A DNA stretch of 64,000 bases from a virus (lineage: Duplodnaviria; Caudoviricetes): IMG/VR virus record IMGVR_UViG_3300037590_000079, positions 45,662 through 109,661 of that record. One strand, 5' to 3'. Below the pieces are notes generated by a model. It did no database searches. It saw only the letters and a list, made by a program, of their open reading frames with translations, and had not been told where the DNA came from. The position numbers and the translations under genes are program-made. Numbering within the stretch: the first letter of the stretch is position 1; each line of letters starts with the position of its first letter. Shown here piece by piece: positions 11,018 through 53,703 of the stretch.

Positions 11018-11208
11018 TGAAAAGCGATCTTCTGGATCTGGACATGCAGATCCACGTCGAGACGGGCAAGGCGGTGCTCGCCTCGACCAGCGGTGAAAAG
11101 GACCAGGCCGTGTGGCTGCCGCTCTCGCAGATCGAGATCGAGCGCAAGGGCGATCTCGCGGTCGTGACGATGCCGGAATGGCTCGCGGTGGACAAGGAGC
11201 TGGTCTGA
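11014..11208 (+). CDS. Small conserved phage protein
   Basis: ETGKAVL ... WLPLSQIE ... MPEWLA pattern. Confidence 0.7.
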
Positions 11209-11678
11209 TGGATACGCCGAAGCCCTTCGTGCCGATCGACGTGTATTCCGAAAGGGACAACACTCGGCACGTCAACTGCTGCTGGTCGCCCGAGCGCGGC
11301 TTCTTCGAGCCGATTACCAATGTCAGTTTCGAGGATCTGCATCTGGAAGTGGTGGACTGGCACTACTCGCCGGTCACGCTTCTGCCCGGCGCGGTCGTGT
11401 CTCATCGCAAGCGTGGCACGAATTACACGGTCAAGGCCGTGTTCTTGGCCAACGCGATCACCGCTGTGAACGACACGACCGACGGAGAGACGATCACGCT
11501 GCAACCGGACGCGGGTCATCCTGATGCGCACCCGCCGCACAGGGTCATGGTGCAGCGCTCGACCACCCGGCACTCACCCGAATGGGCGCTCTACGAGAAC
11601 AAAGATGGCATGCTGTTCGCGCGTCCCCTGTCCGAGTTCACCGAGGATCGCTTCAAGATCCTCTACAACGGAGCCTGA
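11208..11678 (+). CDS. Hypothetical protein (DUF1653-like C-terminus)
   Basis: HRKRG..Y ... LYE...FARPLSEF. Confidence 0.55.
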   Translation: MDTPKPFVPIDVYSERDNTRHVNCCWSPERGFFEPITNVSFEDLHLEVVDWHYSPVTLLPGAVVSHRKRGTNYTVKAVFLANAITAVNDTTDGETITLQPDAGHPDAHPPHRVMVQRSTTRHSPEWALYENKDGMLFARPLSEFTEDRFKILYNGA

Positions 11679-11679
11679 C

Positions 11680-11979
11680 ATGGAAAGCATGGAGTTGACG
11701 CACGCGGTCGAGAATGGCCACATCGATTTTCGGATTGGCGCCGGCATCATCCATATCGACCTGATCTGGGTGGATGAGGATTCTCGCATCAGGGGTGTTG
11801 GCACCGATCTTCTTCTGAAAGTCCTGAGCCTTGCAGACAATCTCGGCTTTTCTGTGGAGCTGGAGTCGCGCGGCGATATCGACCGGGCCGTGCTTCGCGC
11901 CTTCTACGAGAAGCACGGCTTCGTGATGGTCGATAACACACCCTGGATTCAGCTTATGCGCAGAGAGGTGCAACAATGA
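11680..11979 (+). CDS. GNAT-family acetyltransferase
   Basis: IWVDEDSRIRGVGTDLL and FYEKHGF motifs. Confidence 0.75.
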   Translation: MESMELTHAVENGHIDFRIGAGIIHIDLIWVDEDSRIRGVGTDLLLKVLSLADNLGFSVELESRGDIDRAVLRAFYEKHGFVMVDNTPWIQLMRREVQQ

Positions 11980-44315: not shown

Positions 44316-45600
44316 CACCACAATTCACGCACGAAACGGACAAAGCCGGTGCATCAGCATCGGCTTTTCCACGTCTGCACACCGCACGGGATCAACCGAT
44401 AACGACGCCCCTTGCACGTTTCCACGGGTTTCCGAATGTAAACATTCACACTCATCCATGTTCACATTTTCCGCGAAATCTCCGTAAAATAAGAGGATCG
44501 AATGTTTGCATCTTCCGAAAACCAGGATGGCAAATGTTCCGGATGTAAACATGCAGATCGAGGAAAATCAGGAACTTAGCCTCCCGGCACACCCGAAAAA
44601 CAGCCTTTTTAGGTGTAACACGTAAGAGAACAGGACAGAAGCGGATACCTGAAAACCGTCAGAAGCGCTGAGAAGCGCACACAGTGCGCCTAAGCACTCA
44701 CGACGAGCACCGACAGCTTAAAAGAGTCGGACAGCATCAGGTGAAGCGCACAGCGAGCCCCAGACGCATAGACACCTGCTGGGCAGCACGCACAGACGCG
44801 CCGACAGCGTAAAAGCAGCACGGGAACGCGTAGAGACGACACAGAGCCGGAAGAGGTGCGTGAGAAGATAGGAGATGCAGAGACGCACAGAGAGGTCGAG
44901 CGACAGAGAGCCGAGAGAGAAAGCGTTAAGAAGAGGGTAAGAGGAGAAGAGGGGAGGATCATTATAGGAGGATTGGGTGAGACCACACTTCCCCGCAACA
45001 CACCGCACCGCCCCGGATCTCCCGAACTCCTCAAGACGCCGTCCGAAGCCGCGGCACACCGACACGAAGCGTGCGAAACCAGACGACACCCTCGCTCTGC
45101 TGTGCTACTGTGCTAGTGAGAGACAACGCGTGTCCGGACGCGTTCGTGCTGAAAGGCACACTGTTTTGCGTTGCGCATCACGAGACCGGACCGGATGATG
45201 CTAACTCCAGGAGCGTGAGCACCGTCTCACGCTCCTTTTTCTTTCGCCTGACCTGTGCCGGAGAATGTGTCGCGGAAATGGGAGCTTTGGTGCATCATTA
45301 AGAACTTATCTAAAGAAGGTATCTAAGAGTATTATATATAAAGATACAGCGCGGCTCGGGAAAAGGGAGTTTTCAGACCTCTTCCGGAAAGCCACAAAAC
45401 GCACGAAAACCCTGTAAAATCAGCGTCTAAACACCTCTCCCGGCCAAGTCCTCACTGCCGGACCAGGATTCCGATCGCCGTGCTTCCTCGGGAAAAGGGA
45501 GCTTTCAGACCCCGCGGCGCTGAAAGCCGCGCCACTCATTTCCTTGAAAATCAAGGACTTGAAGATGATCCGCCCCTAATAGGAGCTCAAGCGTCCGGTC
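44316..45600. other. Long non-coding region, candidate replication origin/control region
   Basis: No credible ORF; ATGT-NN-RCAT palindromes at 44436, 44458, 44502, 44543; AT-rich patch 45298-45346; 21-bp direct repeat at 45359 and 45491. Confidence 0.45.
45117..45244 (+). ncRNA. Candidate structured small RNA
   Basis: TGCTACTGT -10-like box at ~45103, three hairpins (one with a GAAA loop), then an 11-bp terminator stem with T-run; no ORF. Confidence 0.35.
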
Positions 45601-46009
45601 CTGGCCGGGTTAGGAATGGCTGGGTATACACGCAAAGGCATTTGCGGGTGTGGCGCGCTCCAGACCCTGAGCCACACCCCTCGGTATACCGAGACCCGCC
45701 GGTATACCGAGGATCTCCCGCGGCACGGATGTGAGCCCGGAGGGACGGCAAGGCACAGAGAGGCATCCGGAGGGATCGCTGGCCCGGCAAAAGCGGTGCG
45801 GATTGCCACGGCTCGCCCTCCCGGTGCAAATCCTGACGCCCTGCCCTCTTTCCGCTCGATTTCGACGCACCCGACGGATCGGCTCGTCCCGCGCGCTCCC
45901 TGTCCGATGCCGATCGATGCCTGCCGCTATCCTTCGCAGCGTGTCGTATTGTGCAAGTGTGATCGCGACAAGCGCGACACGCGAAAGCAAAGCAGAAAGG
46001 AAATGTCAC

Positions 46010-46648
46010 ATGGCACAGAACGACAAAGTCACCGAAAAGACCTTCGCGGAGATCATCGCAGATGTGAGCGCCGGCCGCACCAAGAAGCGGATCAGCGATT
46101 TCGAGACCGCCTTCGACGCGCGCATGGCGCACGAGACGCAGAAGGCCGCCGGCAACACCTCGATCCAGAAGGTGCTGAAGGCCGAGAAGGCGAAGCTGAC
46201 CACGCCCGCCCTTGCCGCGCTGAGCCTCGCCGCCGAGATGAGCCCGGACTTCGTCAACCGCGTCAGCCGAGGCGACGCCCGTTTCAACGTCTACGCCATC
46301 AAGAAGATCACGGACCTGATGAACGGTCTCAACGGCCAGGCCATGCGGAACGCGATCAACATCGCCATCATCAAGTCGATGCTGGCCTGCGAGAAGGCGG
46401 GCGTGCCCTTCACCGGCCAGATCGCGCAGGCCGCGGTCTCCGACAAGCTGCCGCTCAAGAAGGAACTCGACGCGATCATGACGCGGCACAATGTCGGTGC
46501 GAGCACGGCACCGACGCAGGCGTCCTCGACGATGAACGCCCTGATGATGACCGGCGTGGCGCGCAACACGGGCACGACGCGCAACCCGGTCTACGAACTC
46601 AAGGCGACGCCGCAGACCGAGGTGCTGCGCACGATGTTCGCCGCGTAA
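46010..46648 (+). CDS. Hypothetical protein (family shared with the 52481 and 28243 ORFs)
   Basis: AAAGGA RBS; normal codon usage; hairpin at 46661-46698 downstream. Confidence 0.8.
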   Translation: MAQNDKVTEKTFAEIIADVSAGRTKKRISDFETAFDARMAHETQKAAGNTSIQKVLKAEKAKLTTPALAALSLAAEMSPDFVNRVSRGDARFNVYAIKKITDLMNGLNGQAMRNAINIAIIKSMLACEKAGVPFTGQIAQAAVSDKLPLKKELDAIMTRHNVGASTAPTQASSTMNALMMTGVARNTGTTRNPVYELKATPQTEVLRTMFAA

Positions 46649-47153
46649 CACCGCAGAGACGCTGAGCGAGCCCGTGAGTGCGTTCGGGCTCACTCAGCAC
46701 CCTGACACCGAAAAAGCGCTCAGGCGCACTCAGTGAAGCGCACAGCGCCTCTCAGGCACAACAAGGGAGACACCCGTCCATGACCTGGCCCTAGCGAGAC
46801 ACCGATGATCAGCGCCACAGACACACGCGCACCAGGCACGACCTGAATTGAAGCCCACCGGGCGACAGGGGAGCACGAGACGTCTGACACCGTCCGCTCC
46901 CCTTTTTCGCGTCTGTGCGTGTGCCGCGGGCTGCCGCGGGACTGGTTGATCCGGGGAATGGATAGGGTGACAGGGACACGCCGGGAGGCGCGTATGGCAA
47001 CAATCTTTCGTTCGTCTCCGAGGAGCTGGCAACTTTTGCAAAGCGGCGTGCCCAAGGTGCGGCGGCTCCCTGCACGCGCCTTCAGAGCCCTGCCGCATCC
47101 CGGCTGCGCGCTTGCTACTGTGAAGATACGCAACGCAAGACGGAGAAAGCGAC

Positions 47154-47441
47154 ATGATGGATTATCACGAGGCGGCAGCGCAGTGGGAGCAGCTTTGCGA
47201 AGGCAGCGAGCTGCTCCGGATCTATATCGAGAACGTCGAGGTGCGCGAGGATCGCATCGTCTACAATTTCGACGGGCACATGAAGTGCGTGCTGTTCTGG
47301 AACACGGAGATCGGCAAGTGGGTCGAGCGCGGCGACGTGCGCGGCGACGAGGATCTGGTGACGATCGAGCGCGGCATTATCGCGAACACGCTGATCGAGG
47401 TGCGCGACAGGCTTGAGGAGGAGCTGCGCGACCCGCTCTGA
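47154..47441 (+). CDS. Hypothetical protein (single-gene cassette)
   Basis: ACGCAACGCAAGACGGAG leader. Confidence 0.7.
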   Translation: MMDYHEAAAQWEQLCEGSELLRIYIENVEVREDRIVYNFDGHMKCVLFWNTEIGKWVERGDVRGDEDLVTIERGIIANTLIEVRDRLEEELRDPL

Positions 47442-47682
47442 GAGCGCTCTGAAGGCGGGGCCGGGAATGGCATCGTCTTCAGGGACCGGCCGATCCGGGA
47501 ATGGCTGGCTCCGGGCGTGTGGATGGCAGGATGGACGGGTATACCGATCCGCGGTCAATTGCGGGGCGCCGGATCCCTGCCCGGCCCTGCACCGACCGTC
47601 GCGTGCCTGGCGTCACCGCGCGCAAACCGCATCTCGCTCTGCTATGTGTGAGACACGCAACACGAAGCAGAAAGAGAGAACC

Positions 47683-48075
47683 ATGCAGATCGCAGAACCG
47701 CAGAACCTCGAACTCAAGACCTATCTCAAGAACCTGTTCGATCTGACCGAAGATGATGCGCGCGAGATCGCGCTCGACCTCGAACAGGTCATGCGCGGTG
47801 ATACCGAGAGCACCCGGTATTTCGAGACGAAGAAACCGCAGCATACGGTTCGTATCAGTGACGAACTCGCACAGCGCATCGCGAACCATGTCGCAGACCT
47901 GCTCGACCGCGAGCTGCCCACTTCCATCGAGATCCCGGCCACTGACCGCGGTGTCATTCTCGACCGCGTGTCGCAGAGTTGCCGCGCGCACCTCGAAACC
48001 CACTGGGCGAAAGACGCGAGTGCGACCTTCTGCGACGCACCTGACGACCACGACATACCGTCGCGCACCGCGTGA
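47683..48075 (+). CDS. Hypothetical protein (single-gene cassette)
   Basis: CAGAAAGAGAGAACC-ATG leader. Confidence 0.7.
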   Translation: MQIAEPQNLELKTYLKNLFDLTEDDAREIALDLEQVMRGDTESTRYFETKKPQHTVRISDELAQRIANHVADLLDRELPTSIEIPATDRGVILDRVSQSCRAHLETHWAKDASATFCDAPDDHDIPSRTA

Positions 48076-48150
48076 AAACCTGATCGAGACGTGTCAGTGT
48101 AGCAATGTGTCTACACTGACACGCAACGCAGAACCTGAAAGGAACTCATC

Positions 48151-48474
48151 ATGACCGCAGAACGTCAACTCGAAACGATCCTCGATGGCCTCAAGCCGCT
48201 CGACGCCGAAAAGGCGCTCGACGGCGATCTCAGCGAGCGCTTCTCGGCCGTCGTCGGCCAGACCTTCTTGATCGACGTGATCCTCGTCGATACCGAGCAC
48301 TACCCGGACGTGTCCGTGGTTCTCGATATCTATCGTCGTGAAGGCACGCACAACATTCACGACGACTTCCGCGGTCTGAGCGATCACGTCGGCCTCTACG
48401 CGGTCCGGTCGCTGCACGACGCCGTCATGCGCATCGCGTCCGCGGTCGTCGTTCACGAAGATACCGTGATCTGA
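48151..48474 (+). CDS. Hypothetical protein
   Basis: ACGCAACGCAGA leader; AAGGA RBS. Confidence 0.7.
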   Translation: MTAERQLETILDGLKPLDAEKALDGDLSERFSAVVGQTFLIDVILVDTEHYPDVSVVLDIYRREGTHNIHDDFRGLSDHVGLYAVRSLHDAVMRIASAVVVHEDTVI

Positions 48475-48543
48475 GCGCCGCGAACGACCTGTGTGCGCCG
48501 CGGCGCACACAGGCATCAGCAAGGCAGACAGAAAGAGATAGCT

Positions 48544-48729
48544 ATGACCGACATCAACCGCATGAAAACCGGCCAGCGCGTCAAGATCGATCACCCCTTC
48601 TACGGCCAGCGCGTCGTCACGATCGAGGATTTCGACGGCCCCAAGGGCAGCACCGTGAACGATACCGGCCTTTGCACGATCGACGGCGCGCGCGTATGGT
48701 TCGATCAGGACATGATCGTCAGCGCCTGA
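48544..48729 (+). CDS. Hypothetical protein (SH3-like beta fold possible)
   Basis: CAGACAGAAAGAGA leader; GQRVKI.HPFYG..VV. Confidence 0.6.
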   Translation: MTDINRMKTGQRVKIDHPFYGQRVVTIEDFDGPKGSTVNDTGLCTIDGARVWFDQDMIVSA

Positions 48730-48735
48730 TGCGCA

Positions 48736-48764
48736 CCAAGGGCGAGCAAGGCGCTCGCCCTTGG
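48736..48764. repeat. 12-bp-stem hairpin, copy 1
   Basis: CCAAGGGCGAGC-AAGGC-GCTCGCCCTTGG. Confidence 0.8.
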
Positions 48765-48862
48765 GACCGACGGGCCTGCACGCGCCGTCACATACCTGCC
48801 GAAAACCTCGAAACGCGTCGCTATTCTGACTGCACTCGCAACGCAGACAGAAAGAGAGAACC

Positions 48863-49312
48863 ATGCTTTACGTGACCGAGAAAGACCTGCTTCACATCAA
48901 GAACGAAGACCTGCACGGTCCTGTCGTCGAGTGCCTCGGCCTCTTCGACGCTGTTCAGCGTCTGTGCAAGTCGCGCCTCACGAACGACGACCGCATCATG
49001 CTCTGGAGCCTTCACGACGCCTATGTCGATCACGAGCAGCGCGACGCCGTCTCGCGCCATGAGGCGCTGCTGATCATCGAGAGCATGATGCGCCTCATGC
49101 CTGTGACGGTCTTGCGCGAGCACAACAACGCGCTCGAATATCTGCACCTCGGCCTCGACGAGGCGCAGTCGCACGACGCGATCAACGGTTTTGTGTGGTG
49201 CAGCACGTATCTGCCTTTCGACAAGAGCGCGCCGTGCGCGACCTGCATCGCAGACGAGAGCGCCTTTCCGGAACTGATCGCGATGATCGAGGGCGCGCTC
49301 AACATCGAGTGA
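48863..49312 (+). CDS. Hypothetical protein
   Basis: CGCAACGCAGACAGAAAGAGAGAACC-ATG leader. Confidence 0.7.
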   Translation: MLYVTEKDLLHIKNEDLHGPVVECLGLFDAVQRLCKSRLTNDDRIMLWSLHDAYVDHEQRDAVSRHEALLIIESMMRLMPVTVLREHNNALEYLHLGLDEAQSHDAINGFVWCSTYLPFDKSAPCATCIADESAFPELIAMIEGALNIE

Positions 49313-49318
49313 CGAGAA

Positions 49319-49347
49319 CCGAGGGCGAGCAAGGCGCTCGCCCTCGG
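49319..49347. repeat. 12-bp-stem hairpin, copy 2
   Basis: CCGAGGGCGAGC-AAGGC-GCTCGCCCTCGG; compensatory change relative to copy 1. Confidence 0.8.
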
Positions 49348-49451
49348 GACGCGCCGGTGCGGGGCCACGGAAACGAATGGCCGCGCAGGGAGAGGTTCTG
49401 CAAGGGCTCTGACGGGCCGCGCGTCCCGCGGGCAGCCCTCCCGGCACGCAA

Positions 49452-49482
49452 GAAAAAGGGCGTGCGTCACGCACGCCCTTCT
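49452..49482 (-). terminator. Terminator between convergent genes
   Basis: AAGGGCGTGCG / CGCACGCCCTT stem with A-run on the left. Confidence 0.7.
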
Positions 49483-49490
49483 CGTCTCGC

Positions 49491-49844
49491 TTACGCGACC
49501 TCGGGCACGAGCGCGCGCTGACGTGCCTTCTCGCGCCGCCGGCGCCACACCTTCGCCCAGTAGCGCCCTTTGCGCGCCTTCATCTTCTCGCGCATCGCGA
49601 TGCGCAGATCGTGCCGCTTCGCGCTGATATAGGCGCAGGCCGCTTCCACCTGGTCGTCGTGCAGCCCCGCTTCCTCGAAGAGCCGCTCGATGCGCGCTTC
49701 GAGCGACCGCGCGCTCGCAGCGCACGCATCGCGCGCCTTGTCGCTCACGCTCTGCGAGCCCCTTTCGATGCCGCGCAGATCGCGTTCCTCACGCGCGATC
49801 TTGTCGAGAATGACACGCTGCCGGATTTCGAAGTCGGTTTTCAT
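49491..49844 (-). CDS. Hypothetical basic helical protein
   Basis: AAAGGA RBS on the minus strand. Confidence 0.65.
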   Translation of the reverse strand: MKTDFEIRQRVILDKIAREERDLRGIERGSQSVSDKARDACAASARSLEARIERLFEEAGLHDDQVEAACAYISAKRHDLRIAMREKMKARKGRYWAKVWRRRREKARQRALVPEVA

Positions 49845-49904
49845 AGCAAGTTCCTTTCTCTGCTTTGCTTGCATCTTTAGCTTTGCAGCTATCTGAGCGG
49901 ATAG

Positions 49905-50066
49905 CTATCGGTATGCAGCGGCTTGCTCAGGCGTCATCAGGCCGAGAAGGACAGAGGTGTCGGCGGGAGCGACGGTCACGGCGATCATCAGCGCCATCAG
50001 GAGCACGCCGGCGACGAGCACGGCCAGGCCGCTGAGCAGTTCGAGCAGTTCCTCCAGCACGCTCAC
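49905..50066 (-). CDS. Small membrane protein
   Basis: GTG start with GGAGG RBS; one long hydrophobic helix. Confidence 0.55.
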   Translation of the reverse strand: MSVLEELLELLSGLAVLVAGVLLMALMIAVTVAPADTSVLLGLMTPEQAAAYR

Positions 50067-50251
50067 GCCTCCTTTGCCTGAAGGGCGCTCAGCGAGCCGC
50101 GCAGACGCCGCAGCAGCGCGATTTCCTGCCGCACCAGCGGGCGCATGATCGCGTGCGCGTTGCGACCGCGAAGCCACACTCTGACGCGCGATTCCTGCGC
50201 GCTGATCGCGCCGATGAGGCGCTGCTTCTCGATTTCGTGACGGTTTTGCAT
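50063..50251 (-). CDS. Hypothetical protein
   Basis: ACGCAAGCAGAGAGCGAGA leader. Confidence 0.6.
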   Translation of the reverse strand: MQNRHEIEKQRLIGAISAQESRVRVWLRGRNAHAIMRPLVRQEIALLRRLRGSLSALQAKEA

Positions 50252-50460
50252 GGTAGTCTCGCTCTCTGCTTGCGTTTTCAGTAAGTTATGAATGACACGC
50301 GTAGAGACGGATTGCGGCAGGCATCGACAGGTGCGCGCAGGGCGTGCCAGGGGCGGCGCATCCCTGCCGCCCTGCGCGCGCCGTCTGAAGCCTGCCGACA
50401 TCCTGATTTTCGCGTGCGAGTCTGTGATTACTGACAACGCAGACAGAAAGAGAGAAGATC

Positions 50461-50724
50461 ATGACCTTCGCTAAAACGACGAAAAAGAACATCGCGCCGC
50501 ATCTCGACGAGCAAGATGAAGAGATCCTCGACGCGATGCGCAAGATCGCGGCCGCATTCTACAAGAAGGCAATCGTCAAGATGAACGACGCCGCGGTCGA
50601 GAACGTCTCGCCCGATGAGGTCTACGATCTCGTCGCGCAGTCGCGCCGCTACAGCGTGAAATCGAGCAATTACGAGCGCAAGCTGCGCCGTATTTATGAC
50701 GAGAAGCGCAAAGACGCCTTCTGA
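50461..50724 (+). CDS. Hypothetical protein (no Gly or Trp)
   Basis: ACGCAGACAGAAAGAGAGA leader. Confidence 0.7.
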   Translation: MTFAKTTKKNIAPHLDEQDEEILDAMRKIAAAFYKKAIVKMNDAAVENVSPDEVYDLVAQSRRYSVKSSNYERKLRRIYDEKRKDAF

Positions 50725-50796
50725 TACCTGCCGACATCCTTCGTCTTGCGTGTCAGTTTGTGATTACTGACACGCAAGACAGAAAGAGAGAGTATC

Positions 50797-51045
50797 ATGC
50801 CCTACACGTTTCAGAACCCGACGCTGCACATGCAAGCTGATGCGGTCATCGTCGCGATGTTCGAAGGCGACAACGAATACGCGATCATCGACGCGGGCTC
50901 GAACGGCACTGCGAATTTCGTGCTCGTCGTTGCCTCGCTCGCAGAAGGCGACGACGTGGTCGTGCTCGAAGAGCACTGCGCGCGCCTGCAAGAAGCCATC
51001 ACGCTCCTCAACGAGTTCATCGACTCTGAATACGCGGACGCTTGA
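50797..51045 (+). CDS. Hypothetical acidic protein
   Basis: ACGCAAGACAGAAAGAGAGA leader. Confidence 0.7.
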   Translation: MPYTFQNPTLHMQADAVIVAMFEGDNEYAIIDAGSNGTANFVLVVASLAEGDDVVVLEEHCARLQEAITLLNEFIDSEYADA

Positions 51046-51321
51046 GGTCTCGCTGCGCATCGAAAGGTGCGCAGCATTCCTTTCGACACCCGGCCGGGTC
51101 AGGAAAGGATAGGGTAACAGGGACCGCCCGATGCGGGCTGCCCGCCACGCCGACGCGGATACGGGCACACAGAGGCCGGCACAGGCACACCGCGGCGCAT
51201 ACAGGGCTCGACGGCTCCCGCCCCTGCCCCGCCATCCTTCAAGCGCCAGAACATGCCGCGATCTATCCGCTCTTGCGCGTGCGATGATGAGTTACTGCAA
51301 CGCAAGACAAGGAGAATACCA

Positions 51322-51615
51322 ATGACCGTCATTCTGAATATCTCGCGCGCACACTGGCGTGGCCCGGAACTCATCGACGTGCCCGTCTACCTCGAAGACG
51401 TCACCGAGGACGCTCTTGATCGCGAGTGCGTGCCCCTCGACGAGATCGAGGATCAGATCGCGTCTGCCATCTGGGAACAGGCGGATCACGAGCGACACGA
51501 CTGGATCCTCGGCGAAGACGAGATTCCCGTGCGCATGCCGGACGAGGCCGAGCGGCTCGAACTGGCGCGCGAAGGATATCTCGTCAGCGCCTATCTCGAC
51601 GAGCGCGTGCAGTAG
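51322..51615 (+). CDS. Hypothetical acidic protein
   Basis: ACGCAAGACAAGGAG leader; D/E-rich. Confidence 0.7.
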   Translation: MTVILNISRAHWRGPELIDVPVYLEDVTEDALDRECVPLDEIEDQIASAIWEQADHERHDWILGEDEIPVRMPDEAERLELAREGYLVSAYLDERVQ

Positions 51616-51853
51616 CACGCCTTGCAGGGCACGCTCTCACGCGCCCTGCGGCACTTGCGGGGACGGGAATGGATGGGTCAACAGGGACGGACCGATGCGG
51701 GGCGCGGCGCACGCCTGGGGAGGGGAATGGATTCCTCAAGGGAGCCGCCGATCTGCGGCGGGGCAGGCACGCGGAGAGCGCGCCCTACCCCTTCCTCGGC
51801 GGCTCCCTGTGGCTGGATAGCCACATGGCTGGATAGCCACACAGCCCGAAGGC

Positions 51854-52180
51854 TCAGTAGATATCCACCTGAATCCGGGTCGCCCGATCCAGCTCGCCCA
51901 GGAGCCGGAGCCTGGCAACGGGGTCGGGGATGGACGCCGCCCTGCCCGCCAGCCTGGCGTTGAGTTCCGCGGCACGGCGCTCCAGCCGCTCCACGTCCCT
52001 GGCGATCTTCTCCGCCAGTTCCTTGCTGGTCTGGTCGTAGATATCCGGCATATCCACGCCCTTCTTCCGCTGGTCGAGGATGAACCTGCGGATCGGCGGG
52101 ATGGACTTCTTCCGGGCGCGGTGCTCGGCGACCCTCTGGCTGACGGGCTTCCGGGCGGGTTTGGTCTTGCCTTCGGGCAT
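51854..52180 (-). CDS. Hypothetical basic protein
   Basis: AGGAG RBS; Arg/Lys-rich N-terminus and coiled C-terminus. Confidence 0.6.
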   Translation of the reverse strand: MPEGKTKPARKPVSQRVAEHRARKKSIPPIRRFILDQRKKGVDMPDIYDQTSKELAEKIARDVERLERRAAELNARLAGRAASIPDPVARLRLLGELDRATRIQVDIY

Positions 52181-52444
52181 GGAATGGTCTCCTATGGTCT
52201 GGGGAAAGGAATGGAGAGGTGCCGGACGGGAGCCGCCTGCCGACGGGCAGGCACATGGCTCGGCGCAGGCGCAGCGGGTAGGGACGCCCCGTGTGGCGGA
52301 AATGCCACAGTGTGATTTTCTCGTCACTATGGCATTTCTGCAACTGTGCTTTTCATGTCGCAGTGTGACATTCATGCCGTCGATCCCCCTACTGTGACAT
52401 TTTTGCAACACGCTCTCGCGTGTGCATGTTACCGAAAGTCGAAA

Positions 52445-52472
52445 CGTGCAGCGCTCTTGCGAGCGCTGCACG
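52445..52472 (-). terminator. Terminator hairpin of the GG/CC-free gene
   Basis: Perfect 12-bp stem CGTGCAGCGCTC / GAGCGCTGCACG 8 nt after the stop; TTTCGACTTT follows on the minus strand. Confidence 0.7.
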
Positions 52473-52480
52473 CTGTCACG

Positions 52481-53020
52481 TCAGCACGCGACGAAATCAG
52501 CGAATTTCTCAGCGCACGCGTCGAGCAATGCGCTGTCACGCGCTTCATACGTATGTTTCGAGATTTCGCGCATCATGTTCGCATTTTTCATCATGCTGAT
52601 AGCGAGTTGCACTTGACGTGCTGTCGAGTGTTTCGACTGACGCTCATGCACGATATGCGCGCGTTCGTCGCTCACTTTGCACGAATTCAGCATCGCGCAT
52701 TCGATATCGTGACGCGTCACGAAAGCGTCATGTGCGCGCGCGTTGAGAAGCGTCTTGATCGCGCACAGCGAATTCTGCTTCACGTCGCTTGCGCTGATAT
52801 GATCGCGCGTGACGTTGTGCGCGATGTTCACGATATCAAACGCGCAGTAGAGATCACGCGCGTTGAAATAGCGCGCGTCGATATTGCTCGCGATAAGCAT
52901 ATCGTAAACGCGCTTGTCTGCGCATTTCAGCGCAAGCGACTGCGCTTTCTTGACGTTGTTCGCGCACAGTTCGCGCTTTTCGATCAGCGACTTGAATGCT
53001 TTGCTATACTTGTTCGACAT
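52481..53020 (-). CDS. 179-aa protein without Gly, Pro or Trp, encoded in GG/CC-free DNA
   Basis: Open frame with promoter, AGAGAGAGA RBS and terminator; resembles the 46010 protein by eye. Confidence 0.75.
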   Translation of the reverse strand: MSNKYSKAFKSLIEKRELCANNVKKAQSLALKCADKRVYDMLIASNIDARYFNARDLYCAFDIVNIAHNVTRDHISASDVKQNSLCAIKTLLNARAHDAFVTRHDIECAMLNSCKVSDERAHIVHERQSKHSTARQVQLAISMMKNANMMREISKHTYEARDSALLDACAEKFADFVAC

Positions 53021-53069
53021 TGTGTCTCTCTCTCGTTTTGCGTTGCTAGCGTTGTTCGCTAGTAAGTTA

Positions 53070-53098
53070 CATCTACGCGAAACAATCGCACAATGCAA
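53070..53098 (-). promoter_or_regulatory. Sigma70-like promoter of the GG/CC-free gene
   Basis: TTGCAT-N17-TAGATG on the minus strand; a TAGCTATC box abuts the -35. Confidence 0.55.
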
Positions 53099-53470
53099 TA
53101 GCTATCTAGCTAAAAAATGTCTCAATCGTGATTTTTTTTCGATATCGTCACAGAGCGTCACAGAGCGTCATACAGTGCGCTTAGCATCTTGCGCTAGTCT
53201 GTGTCGCGAAACGACGCAATCGCACTGTGTGAAGCGCACAGCGCTTCTGTGCGCGTGCTGCGTCTCGTGCGTCTCGAAGTCTTAGAAAATCGCGAGATGC
53301 TTGAGGGGGATACCCTCTGTGTCCACCAGCTCCCGGCGTTGAAAGCTCCCATACTCTCTGTGCCACCGACATCCTGGCACAAAAGCTCCCCTGCCCCGCG
53401 CACCACAACGGATATTGCTGGATACTCCCATAGCTATCCGGCTCTGTATGGATCTACCTCGATAGCTATC

Positions 53471-53545
53471 TGGCTCCCCGGACAGGGTTCGAACCTGTAA
53501 CCTGCCGATTAACAGTCGGCTGCTCTACCGTTGAGCTACCGGGGA
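53471..53545 (-). tRNA. tRNA-Asn(GTT)
   Basis: TCCCCGG acceptor stem, CCGAC-TGTTAAT anticodon arm, GGTTCGAAC T-loop, encoded CCA. Confidence 0.95.
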
Positions 53546-53548
53546 AGA

Positions 53549-53624
<76 letters not shown>

Positions 53625-53626
53625 AA

Positions 53627-53703
53627 TGGTCCGTGTGGAGGGATTTGAACCCCCGTCTCTCCGCGTCCAAGGCGGCCACTCTACCAGGCTGAGCTACACA
53701 CGG
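53627..53703 (-). tRNA. tRNA-Pro(TGG)
   Basis: CCGTGTG acceptor stem (C1:G72, A73), loop CTTGGAC, GGTTCAAAT, ACCA end. Confidence 0.9.

Follow-up and report, generated by a model that had tools for sequence, protein, structure and literature searches.

Avoidance of short sequence motifs is known from phages, both for restriction sites and for the protospacer-adjacent motifs of clustered regularly interspaced short palindromic repeat (CRISPR) systems (PMC4246573). Here we describe an array of eleven small ORFan genes, A to K, at 47.1-51.6 kb of a 64,000-nucleotide window that comprises bases 45662-109661 of the 109,661-bp IMG/VR record IMGVR_UViG_3300037590_000079 (positions are those of the window unless the genome is named). 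The array lies between two conserved genes, N and M, most of its genes are preceded by one shared promoter/leader module, and its coding DNA is short of GG and CC. As in the described cases of motif avoidance, short words are under-represented on both strands beyond chance, and the same genome shows a textbook palindrome purge (GTAC and 12 hexamers). Unlike in those cases, the avoided words are only two or three bases long, the avoidance is a local one that affects only expression units and spares the DNA between genes, and it overrides the choice of amino acids and of ribosome-site sequence. We know of no host system with such 2-3-base targets.

Two other phage systems invite comparison. The pre-early (first-step-transfer) DNA of T5 is devoid of EcoRI sites and, like the array, forms a block of about 8% of the genome in which many small genes of unknown function have their own promoters. 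However, the phage that carries the array has unrelated replication genes (DnaE, RepC), a lambda-like tail, a plasmid-prophage family and unpurged spacers, and neither two-step entry nor a terminal position is evidenced for the array. The array resembles morons in its units, which mostly comprise one gene behind its own promoter and usually have a hairpin after them, in its atypical composition and in its place in a hypervariable slot between conserved genes of a temperate (plasmid prophage) family, N and M being nearly adjacent in relatives. It differs in that its units share a promoter module made within this phage, and in that its odd composition is a word rule held in common with the neighbouring gene M, not a foreign signature.

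A further comparison concerns the paired ABC ATPase and GNAT acyltransferase of the COG2401 / MK0520 type, a system with Mom-like logic that is predicted to acylate a DNA base (PMC7824862). Here too, an ABC ATPase and a GNAT-like partner lie by ParB-like genes and the terminase, in a neighbourhood that is kept by all relatives as well as by the nickie, SSU5, ANB28 and JGB6 groups. The published system is itself a prediction with neither chemistry nor a target motif, and its link to GG words is a suggestion of ours.

What is new here is a graded, word-specific depletion limited to expression units, together with an expanded array that shares its promoter. The depletion implies some reader of GG/CC words on DNA that needs to be expressed. 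We tentatively favour, at a little short of an even chance, the hypothesis that the array and its depletion reflect escape from a factor that acts on GG words and hinders transcription, this factor most likely being a covalent mark written by the phage.

Depletion of GG and CC in the cassette genes

The observed/expected (O/E) ratio of GG plus CC, relative to base composition, is 0.34-0.73 in the cassette genes (Table 1), against 0.77 +/- 0.07 (minimum 0.56) in a baseline of 89 genes and 0.80 +/- 0.08 (minimum 0.63) in 42 small genes; nine of the eleven fall below the small-gene minimum. Along the window, where the ratio is 0.76 overall, 500-bp windows at 47-51 kb give 0.36-0.67, and the ratio is zero over 52432-53305, the unit of gene M. 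The departure from the genome average suspected in the sequence-only reading is thus real. It persists when the protein is fixed: under synonymous resampling with genome codon usage the observed/synonymous ratio (obs/syn) is 0.49-0.74 in ten of the genes and 0.92 in D, compared with 0.88 +/- 0.07 in the baseline. Depletion is present at codon positions 1-2 and 2-3 and also across codon junctions, where a G meets a G 70 times with 143 expected (ratio 0.49; 0.82 in baseline genes).

Amino acid and codon choice both bear the imprint of this rule. Glycine and proline codons occur at 0.53 and 0.65 of the baseline, and xGG and xCC codons at 0.59. The summed fraction of Gly, Pro and Trp is 0.023-0.11 in ten of the eleven cassette proteins and 0.145 in D, versus 0.13. 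The lowest value belongs to the product of I (start at 50461), which contains two Pro and, as had been noticed earlier, neither Gly nor Trp. A preference against GCC, ACC and CGG had also been proposed: the share of GCC does fall from 0.40 in the baseline to 0.23 in the cassettes and that of CGG plus AGG from 0.33 to 0.16, with TCC going from 0.24 to 0.06, but ACC is not avoided (0.51 vs 0.52). Third-position G+C of the cassettes is like that of the genome (0.74-0.88).

The words that contain GG are not lost alike. Measured against synonymous expectation, the strongest losses are those of GGA/TCC (49 observed, 121.7 expected, z -9.4; 0.48 after baseline correction), TGG/CCA (38 and 94.8, z -9.1; 0.50) and GGG/CCC (36 and 86.4, z -6.3; 0.61), while CGG, GGC, AGG and GGT are near normal at 0.83-0.97 of the baseline-corrected expectation. 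The cassette genes had been supposed to follow a weaker form of the ban at 52.4-53.3 kb; the two are related, but the array obeys a narrower rule and not a diluted version of the GG/CC ban. On the coding strand a word and its complement are depleted alike (GGA 0.49, TCC 0.47; TGG 0.57, CCA 0.41). Because of this strand symmetry, the effect at codon junctions and the GG/CC-free non-coding flanks of M, we conclude that selection acts on duplex DNA and not on mRNA, tRNA or protein. An earlier proposal of selection on nucleotides rather than proteins, related to the ban at M, is upheld by the synonymous sites, the junctions and the equality of word and complement.

These observations make it very improbable that selection operates on RNA or translation, with the mRNA avoiding an endoribonuclease site or an internal GGAG that resembles a Shine-Dalgarno sequence, or with the tRNAs for Gly, Pro and Trp being limiting or attacked. 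Such a process would fit the leaders that carry GAGAGA instead of GGAG, the low content of Gly, Pro and Trp, and the tRNA genes that adjoin M here and include tRNA-Trp in relatives. However, the sense-strand complements are as depleted as the words themselves (TCC like GGA, CCA like TGG), codon junctions are affected, the non-coding flanks of M are equally free of GG/CC, and the strand symmetry is left unexplained by any single reader at the level of RNA or tRNA.

The distribution of the depletion is equally informative. The 60 nt upstream of the starts have O/E ratios of 0.12-0.47 and the coding sequences 0.34-0.73, while the spacers between cassettes have 0.72-1.01 (pooled 0.89), with 338 GG/CC in 1671 bp at 67% G+C. 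Gene L, which lies between the array and M, stands at 1.05, and the genome outside the array at 0.77, so that avoidance does not extend over all exposed DNA. A trend with distance from 53305, which had been anticipated, is absent (Spearman 0.13, p 0.67). Since the spacers and L are undepleted and there is no distance trend, the rule follows expression units and not the region, contrary to the proposal that the whole region lies under one selection.

This pattern also bears on two other explanations. If there were no special selection, the composition would be the signature of recently acquired foreign DNA, a by-product of small acidic helical proteins or a local mutation bias. The genes are indeed ORFans without homologues in relatives, and the region's composition is unlike that of the genome. 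However, the depletion survives fixed amino acids and genome codon usage, third-position G+C is genome-like, and ten unrelated genes are depleted while the intervening spacers and L are not, although a mutation bias would hit spacers as well. Non-homologous cassettes that adjoin M in relatives are depleted too (0.39-0.57). We therefore give this explanation hardly any credence.

The other explanation is that the first-entering or exposed DNA avoids host DNA-cutting defences (restriction sites, CC / NGG CRISPR motifs) and carries immediate-early take-over or anti-defence genes, in the manner of T5. The genome has undergone an extreme purge of restriction sites: GTAC is absent (118 expected) and 12 hexamer palindromes are eliminated or nearly so, nine of them being missing genome-wide (AAGCTT, AGGCCT, CACGTG, CCATGG, CCCGGG, CTCGAG with 0 vs 93, CTGCAG, GGGCCC and GTGCAC) and three occurring once each (GTCGAC, ATGCAT, AACGTT), with GANTC at about 0.5. 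The palindromes purged in relatives form sets that overlap with this one without being identical. In addition, the GG/CC step coincides exactly with a two-base CRISPR motif, the many small ORFans have their own promoters and several are acidic, and the locus is hypervariable between conserved genes. Against this, the spacers and L hold GG/CC, so the segment is fully cuttable and targetable, and neither GGCC (744 vs 764) nor CCGG (811 vs 744) is avoided genome-wide. There is no trend towards the GG/CC-free unit, the record ends overlap by about 130 nt (the assembly being circular or permuted), which leaves the physical genome ends unplaced, and no cassette protein of A-F and H-K matches a known family in Pfam, PHROGs or PADLOC. 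Avoidance of cutting thus seems to us improbable, though less so than the two explanations above. We favour escape from a transcription-hindering factor over it because of the GG/CC-rich spacers and L, the missing distance trend and the normal genome-wide frequencies of GGCC and CCGG.

Anatomy of the array and its shared leader

All relatives have kept N and M, which converge on the interval between them; this interval measures 5.8 kb here and 1.0-1.3 kb in the related genomes G001 and G002, and holds two to four small genes in RHEph10, B1VFA, X66 and pLM21S1. Genes A-K have no homologue in G001-G003. Because the borders are conserved, the interval is variable and A-K have no counterparts in those three genomes, we conclude that the array is an expanded hypervariable accessory-gene slot between two conserved winged-helix paralogues. 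At DNA level the region has no match among GenBank phages, and peptide-pattern searches for M, N and E confirmed no relatives in viral or genome contigs. E has a homologue of 54% identity on a 110.7-kb contig of Phaeobacter gallaeciensis, and because of this homologue we regard E as a real gene.

Table 1. Features of the array and its surroundings (window positions; O/E and obs/syn refer to GG plus CC)
Feature	Unit or cassette	Coding sequence	Strand	O/E	obs/syn	Description
N	46010..46648		+			212 aa; paralogue of M with normal composition; left array border; same leader type
A	47079..47441	47154-47441	+	0.49	0.70	95-aa acidic ORFan; CAACGCAAG box at 47131
B	47608..48075	47683-48075	+	0.53	0.66	130-aa ORFan; leader with GAAAGAGAGA
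C	48086..48474	48151-48474	+	0.53		107-aa ORFan; 12-bp perfect inverted repeat in leader
D	48490..48729	48544-48729	+	0.73	0.92	61-aa ORFan; least depleted; leader GCAGACAGAAAGAGA, without CAACGCA box
E	48788..49312	48863-49312	+	0.40	0.59	149-aa Cys-containing ORFan
F	49491..49919	49491-49844	-	0.45		117-aa basic ORFan; variant leader
H-G unit	49905..50326		-			Two-gene unit; H first (shared leader), then G
H		50063-50251	-	0.44		62 aa
G		49905-50060	-	0.64		About 51 aa, membrane-like; GTG start after AGGAGG inside the end of H
I	50386..50724	50461-50724	+	0.34	0.53	87-aa Lys-rich ORFan; canonical leader ACGCAGACAGAAAGAGAGA
J	50722..51045	50797-51045	+	0.37	0.49	82-aa acidic ORFan
K	51247..51615	51322-51615	+	0.58	0.68	97-aa acidic ORFan; shared box, AAGGAG ribosome site
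L	51854..52180		-	1.05	1.29	108 aa, basic; ordinary AGGAGA site; leader block 1.19; outside the rule
M unit	52432..53305	52481-53020	-			GG/CC-free; gene M (179 aa) with 285 bp upstream and 49 bp downstream; right array border
Spacer	46649..47093		.			GG/CC-rich; terminator-like hairpin and one copy of the GGGAATGGAT...CAGGGAC repeat
Similar spacers	47442-47622, 49313-49490, 51046-51261, 51616-51853, 52181-52431					Repeat families D2, D6, D11, D15
Spacer repeat sites	45604-45648, 46955-46977, 47455-47520, 51093-51151, 51657-51740, 52181-52220					
tRNA-Asn(GTT), tRNA-Ile(GAT), tRNA-Pro(TGG)	53471..53703		-			Just upstream of the M unit; ARAGORN and Rfam

Alignment of upstream sequences reveals a four-part module that consists of a distal CCTGCCG..ATCC block, a TTACTG-like element, a box CAACGCA[AG] and a purine tract GAAAGAGAGA before the ATG. 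Related modules, which are putative promoters, precede 12 starts, and seven of the nine copies of the box in the 109.7-kb genome lie at 45.1-53.1 kb. The starts and leaders described earlier are present. That each small gene has its own leader is right for most, but H and G form a two-gene unit in which G has an ordinary AGGAGG site. The TTACTG-like element is flanked in some copies by an inverted repeat, of 13 bp in J and 12 bp in C, both perfect (leader fold z of -6.05 for J and -3.0 for C). The 89-nt block upstream of J is 80% identical to that of I. Ribosome-site windows without GG occur at seven of 13 starts of the region, versus four of 110 genes elsewhere, a contrast that agrees with the earlier remark on such sites but is inflated, as selection of the starts elsewhere favoured good Shine-Dalgarno matches.

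In relatives the same leader type, CAACGC followed by GAGAGA or AAGGAG, is found on N, the interval genes and M. Because the leader type is shared with relatives, we regard the module as ancestral to the slot and copied here, and the array has grown to 11 ORFan genes by re-use of this one module. Because one module may have been copied, the poverty of the leaders in GG is not independent evidence for the rule. The exact leader pattern has one match in IMG/VR, in a 2-Mb record, which we suspect to be due to chance. We also considered a palindromic operator, TTGCGTG...CACGCAA, which is pronounced upstream of J, C and B, and rejected it; a loose genome scan finds it at chance level (10 vs 4-11).

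Hairpins lie 3' of N, D, E, J and K. A 61-nt block with an identical GC hairpin (GGGCGAGCAAGGCGCTCGCCC) follows both D (48707-48767) and E (49290-49350), and looks like a copied terminator. Within 45.6-52.2 kb the spacers also carry about eight copies of a GG-rich repeat, GGGAATGGAT-N7-CAGGGAC-N3-CCGATGCGGG, which is confined to the spacers of the region. Spacers are 2-4x enriched in tetramers with G runs (GGGA, AGGG, GGGG). The idea that spacer repeats are enriched in exactly those words that the genes avoid was rejected, the overall tetramer correlation being non-significant (Spearman -0.16, p 0.34).

The GG/CC-free gene M, its paralogue N and the phage family

M encodes no Gly, Pro or Trp, and its GG/CC-free run of 873 bp is the longest in the genome, the next being 68 bp. 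The run includes the 285 bp upstream of the gene (53021-53305), which are non-coding, contain an A/T run and a tandem duplication of TCACAGAGCG, and end abruptly at 53305. The GG/CC-free unit is conserved in seven relatives, and in each relative that was checked the M homologue sits in a run free, or almost free, of GG/CC. G001, G002, RHEph10, B1VFA, X66 and pLM21S1 all keep the absolute ban on M, with runs of about 755 bp in G001, 775 bp in G002, 851 bp in B1VFA, 1334 bp in pLM21S1 and about 1150 bp in RHEph10, the last of these interrupted by a few exceptions. The M zone of G003 (46331-47336, L101) is not GG/CC-free; it lacks GGC/GCC over 1005 bp and GGA/TCC over 939 bp, and the M protein retains 11 Gly, Pro or Trp residues, which makes it a natural relaxed variant of the rule. 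Because G003 bans only GGC/GCC and GGA/TCC, the set of banned words varies within the family. GGA is common to the G003 ban, to the banned word TGGA of ANB28 and to the most depleted words of the cassettes. A literature search found no description of GG/CC-free genes or of phage proteins without Gly, Pro and Trp.

A profile search yielded 172 representatives of the M family; of 152 sequences, 98 lack Gly, Pro and Trp altogether and 17 contain one or two such residues, although the profile itself lacks these residues and may bias the search towards such proteins. The model of M (predicted local distance difference test 87, predicted template modelling score 0.85) suggests that its C-terminal half is a winged helix, with a helix-turn-helix and a beta-hairpin wing: residues 75-179 match AF1382, ORC2 WH, MarR, PadR and ArsR domains at Z 7-9.7, which is moderate only, and a root-mean-square deviation of 2-4 A. 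N homologues of 36-48% identity occupy the same position in G001-G003 and on plasmids of Shinella, Methylobacterium, Rhizobium and Sinorhizobium. N hits members of the M family that are free of Gly, Pro and Trp at E values of 1e-22 to 1e-6, while a direct BLASTP comparison of N with M is weak (E 0.097), so that their paralogy is shown only through family intermediates. In RHEph10 (L105), the deposited gp097 (11106-11810, 226 aa, + strand) seems to be read antisense to the real M homologue (11196-11810, - strand, 204 aa, one Gly, Pro or Trp), which suggests that the public entry is misannotated.

The nearest cultured relatives are the Rhizobium phages RHEph10, RHph_X66, B1VFA and V1VFA-S; the hosts of relatives are Rhizobium and Sinorhizobium. 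The plasmids of 115-119 kb that carry N homologues come from Shinella, Methylobacterium, Rhizobium, Pararhizobium and Sinorhizobium, and include pLM21S1. Both pLM21S1 and RHEph10 are plasmid-like prophages with RepC-type replication (PMC4447125, PMC5537653, PMC7969092). The present genome encodes RepC at genome 37.5-38.7 kb as well as ParA- and ParB-like proteins, and among its phage genes are a DnaE-UDG fusion, a class II ribonucleotide reductase, an SbcC-like ATPase and a helicase. The carrier of the array is a phage-plasmid of rhizobia-like bacteria that belongs to the RHEph10-like family. A RepC-type replication origin as explanation of the array was rejected, as repC is distant from it.

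Possible readers of GG words

We propose that a factor on GGA/TCC, TGG/CCA and GGG/CCC words in duplex DNA would hinder transcription, and that genes needing expression from such DNA would lose these words, M wholly and the cassettes in part. The likeliest factor would be a covalent mark made by the conserved ParB / ABC-ATPase / GNAT-like module beside the terminase. Packaged and incoming DNA would thus carry the mark, and M and the cassettes would stay readable straight after entry, which on this hypothesis would account for their common promoter class. Incoming DNA would then be transcribed first, or exclusively, at M and the interval genes, from starts near the CAACGCAA box. We infer the existence of the mark, its effect on RNA polymerase and the timing of expression alike; the cassettes may equally be early genes or genes expressed, moron-like, in the lysogen from the resident plasmid.

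The module runs ParB-like gene, ABC ATPase, small gene and 294-aa protein, just before the terminase. The ABC ATPase (genome 1266-1904; PF00005, E 2.8e-13) is 75-77% and the 294-aa partner 62-69% identical across G001-G003, above the terminase and among the best conserved of the proteins compared. Among named atlas clusters, those nearest to the 294-aa protein are of GNAT acetyltransferases (score 0.97), with 28% of members carrying PF00583, and some depositors annotate its homologues as the MK0520 type, in which an ABC ATPase and an acyltransferase are fused. Among GenBank phages, homologues of the module occur in 31 records only, namely the RHEph10 group, nickie-like phages of P. syringae, Stenotrophomonas and Xanthomonas phages and SSU5-like phage-plasmids, and all four records inspected share the module neighbourhood. 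Three outside groups, all of them carriers of the module, were checked for islands of missing words. Nickie has a GG/CC-free island of 1137 bp with two genes free of Gly, Pro and Trp and a CGAGAGA ribosome site, while SSU5 (95-97 kb) and ANB28 (TGGA-free over 1750 bp) have weaker islands of missing GG-containing words. The M profile found no homologue in nickie, SSU5, ANB28 or JGB6. Within the family itself the comparison is uninformative for the GNAT link, as the module is present in every relative, even in G003, where the rule is relaxed.

Several observations weigh against a phage-written mark. The strand of loss differs from gene to gene, A, F and H having lost mostly CC on the coding strand (0.24-0.40) and B, C, G and I mostly GG (0.36-0.55), a difference for which we have no explanation. 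N has the same leader type yet its coding sequence is undepleted (obs/syn 0.84 for GG and 0.95 for CC), and partial depletion in relatives is weak overall (pooled Mann-Whitney p 0.028). The 294-aa partner has no Pfam hit, its GNAT label coming from language-model neighbours. The groups that have both module and island also share a backbone, so their co-occurrence may be inherited and not functional. Finally, because the GG-containing palindromes (CCATGG, CCCGGG, GGGCCC, AGGCCT) are eliminated genome-wide like those without GG, any such mark does not visibly relieve restriction pressure at these sites.

A protein binder is a close rival of the covalent mark, although we consider this version unlikely. 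A silencer that binds DNA at GG words (M, N, a ParB-like protein and a host nucleoid protein are candidates) would shut down transcription but spare the M gene and the co-regulated cassettes, which lack its sites; the escape may belong to the early phase of infection or to life as a resident plasmid, where the cassettes would act as morons. The same facts of composition would follow from it, namely an effect at the level of the duplex that is strand-symmetric and limited to expression units. The fold of M and N is a winged helix (Z up to 9.7), the family consists of phage-plasmids with ParA, ParB and RepC (PMC4447125), the cassettes come with promoters and hairpins of their own and differ in composition from their neighbours, and the spacers are rich in GGGA, AGGG and GGGG, where the GGGAATGGAT...CAGGGAC repeat could be a loading site. 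However, two to three bases would be a very low specificity for a protein of this fold, tetramer enrichment in spacers is uncorrelated with depletion in cassettes, and the inverted repeat of some leaders occurs genome-wide at chance frequency.

Returning to the covalent mark, a more specific form of the hypothesis is that the phage marks its own GG words and that word density is a built-in expression code, in other words a timing device encoded in the DNA. We regard this as possible but doubtful. Units with none of the words (M) or few of them (the cassettes) would be readable on marked DNA and other genes would wait for unmarked copies or a phage factor; GGA, TGG and GGG would approximate the preferred target of the writer.

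If the favoured hypothesis is true, a short DNA word shapes protein composition, ribosome-site sequence and codon choice in defined phage genes, which points to a novel factor that reads or writes duplex DNA. Beyond the absolute island of M, the graded array reveals which words count most (GGA/TCC, TGG/CCA and GGG/CCC), and with the limit to expression units the question becomes less how DNA escapes cutting than how it stays transcribable. The cultured relatives RHEph10, B1VFA and X66, and pLM21S1 as a resident plasmid, make the hypothesis directly testable, and the eleven small proteins of unknown function in this hypervariable slot are candidates for functional screens.

Some features of the surroundings deserve mention. 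Rfam identifies the three tRNAs of Table 1 and nothing else in the region. Beside M there is a tRNA-Pro here and a tRNA-Trp in X66 (L109 8717-8965), each decoding codons that are absent from M, which may be coincidence. To the left of N, about 1.7 kb (44320-46000) hold no convincing gene but contain a purine-rich tract (44840-44960) and an AT-rich patch (45300-45340); this stretch may contain an origin, a packaging site or a genome end. Within it, 45085-45245 is a candidate small RNA, with a promoter-like block that resembles the leader of B, about 110 nt without an open reading frame and then a strong terminator hairpin (45209-45236) followed by a T-run. A CAACGCAAAACAG box lies at 45173, on the strand opposite to this candidate.

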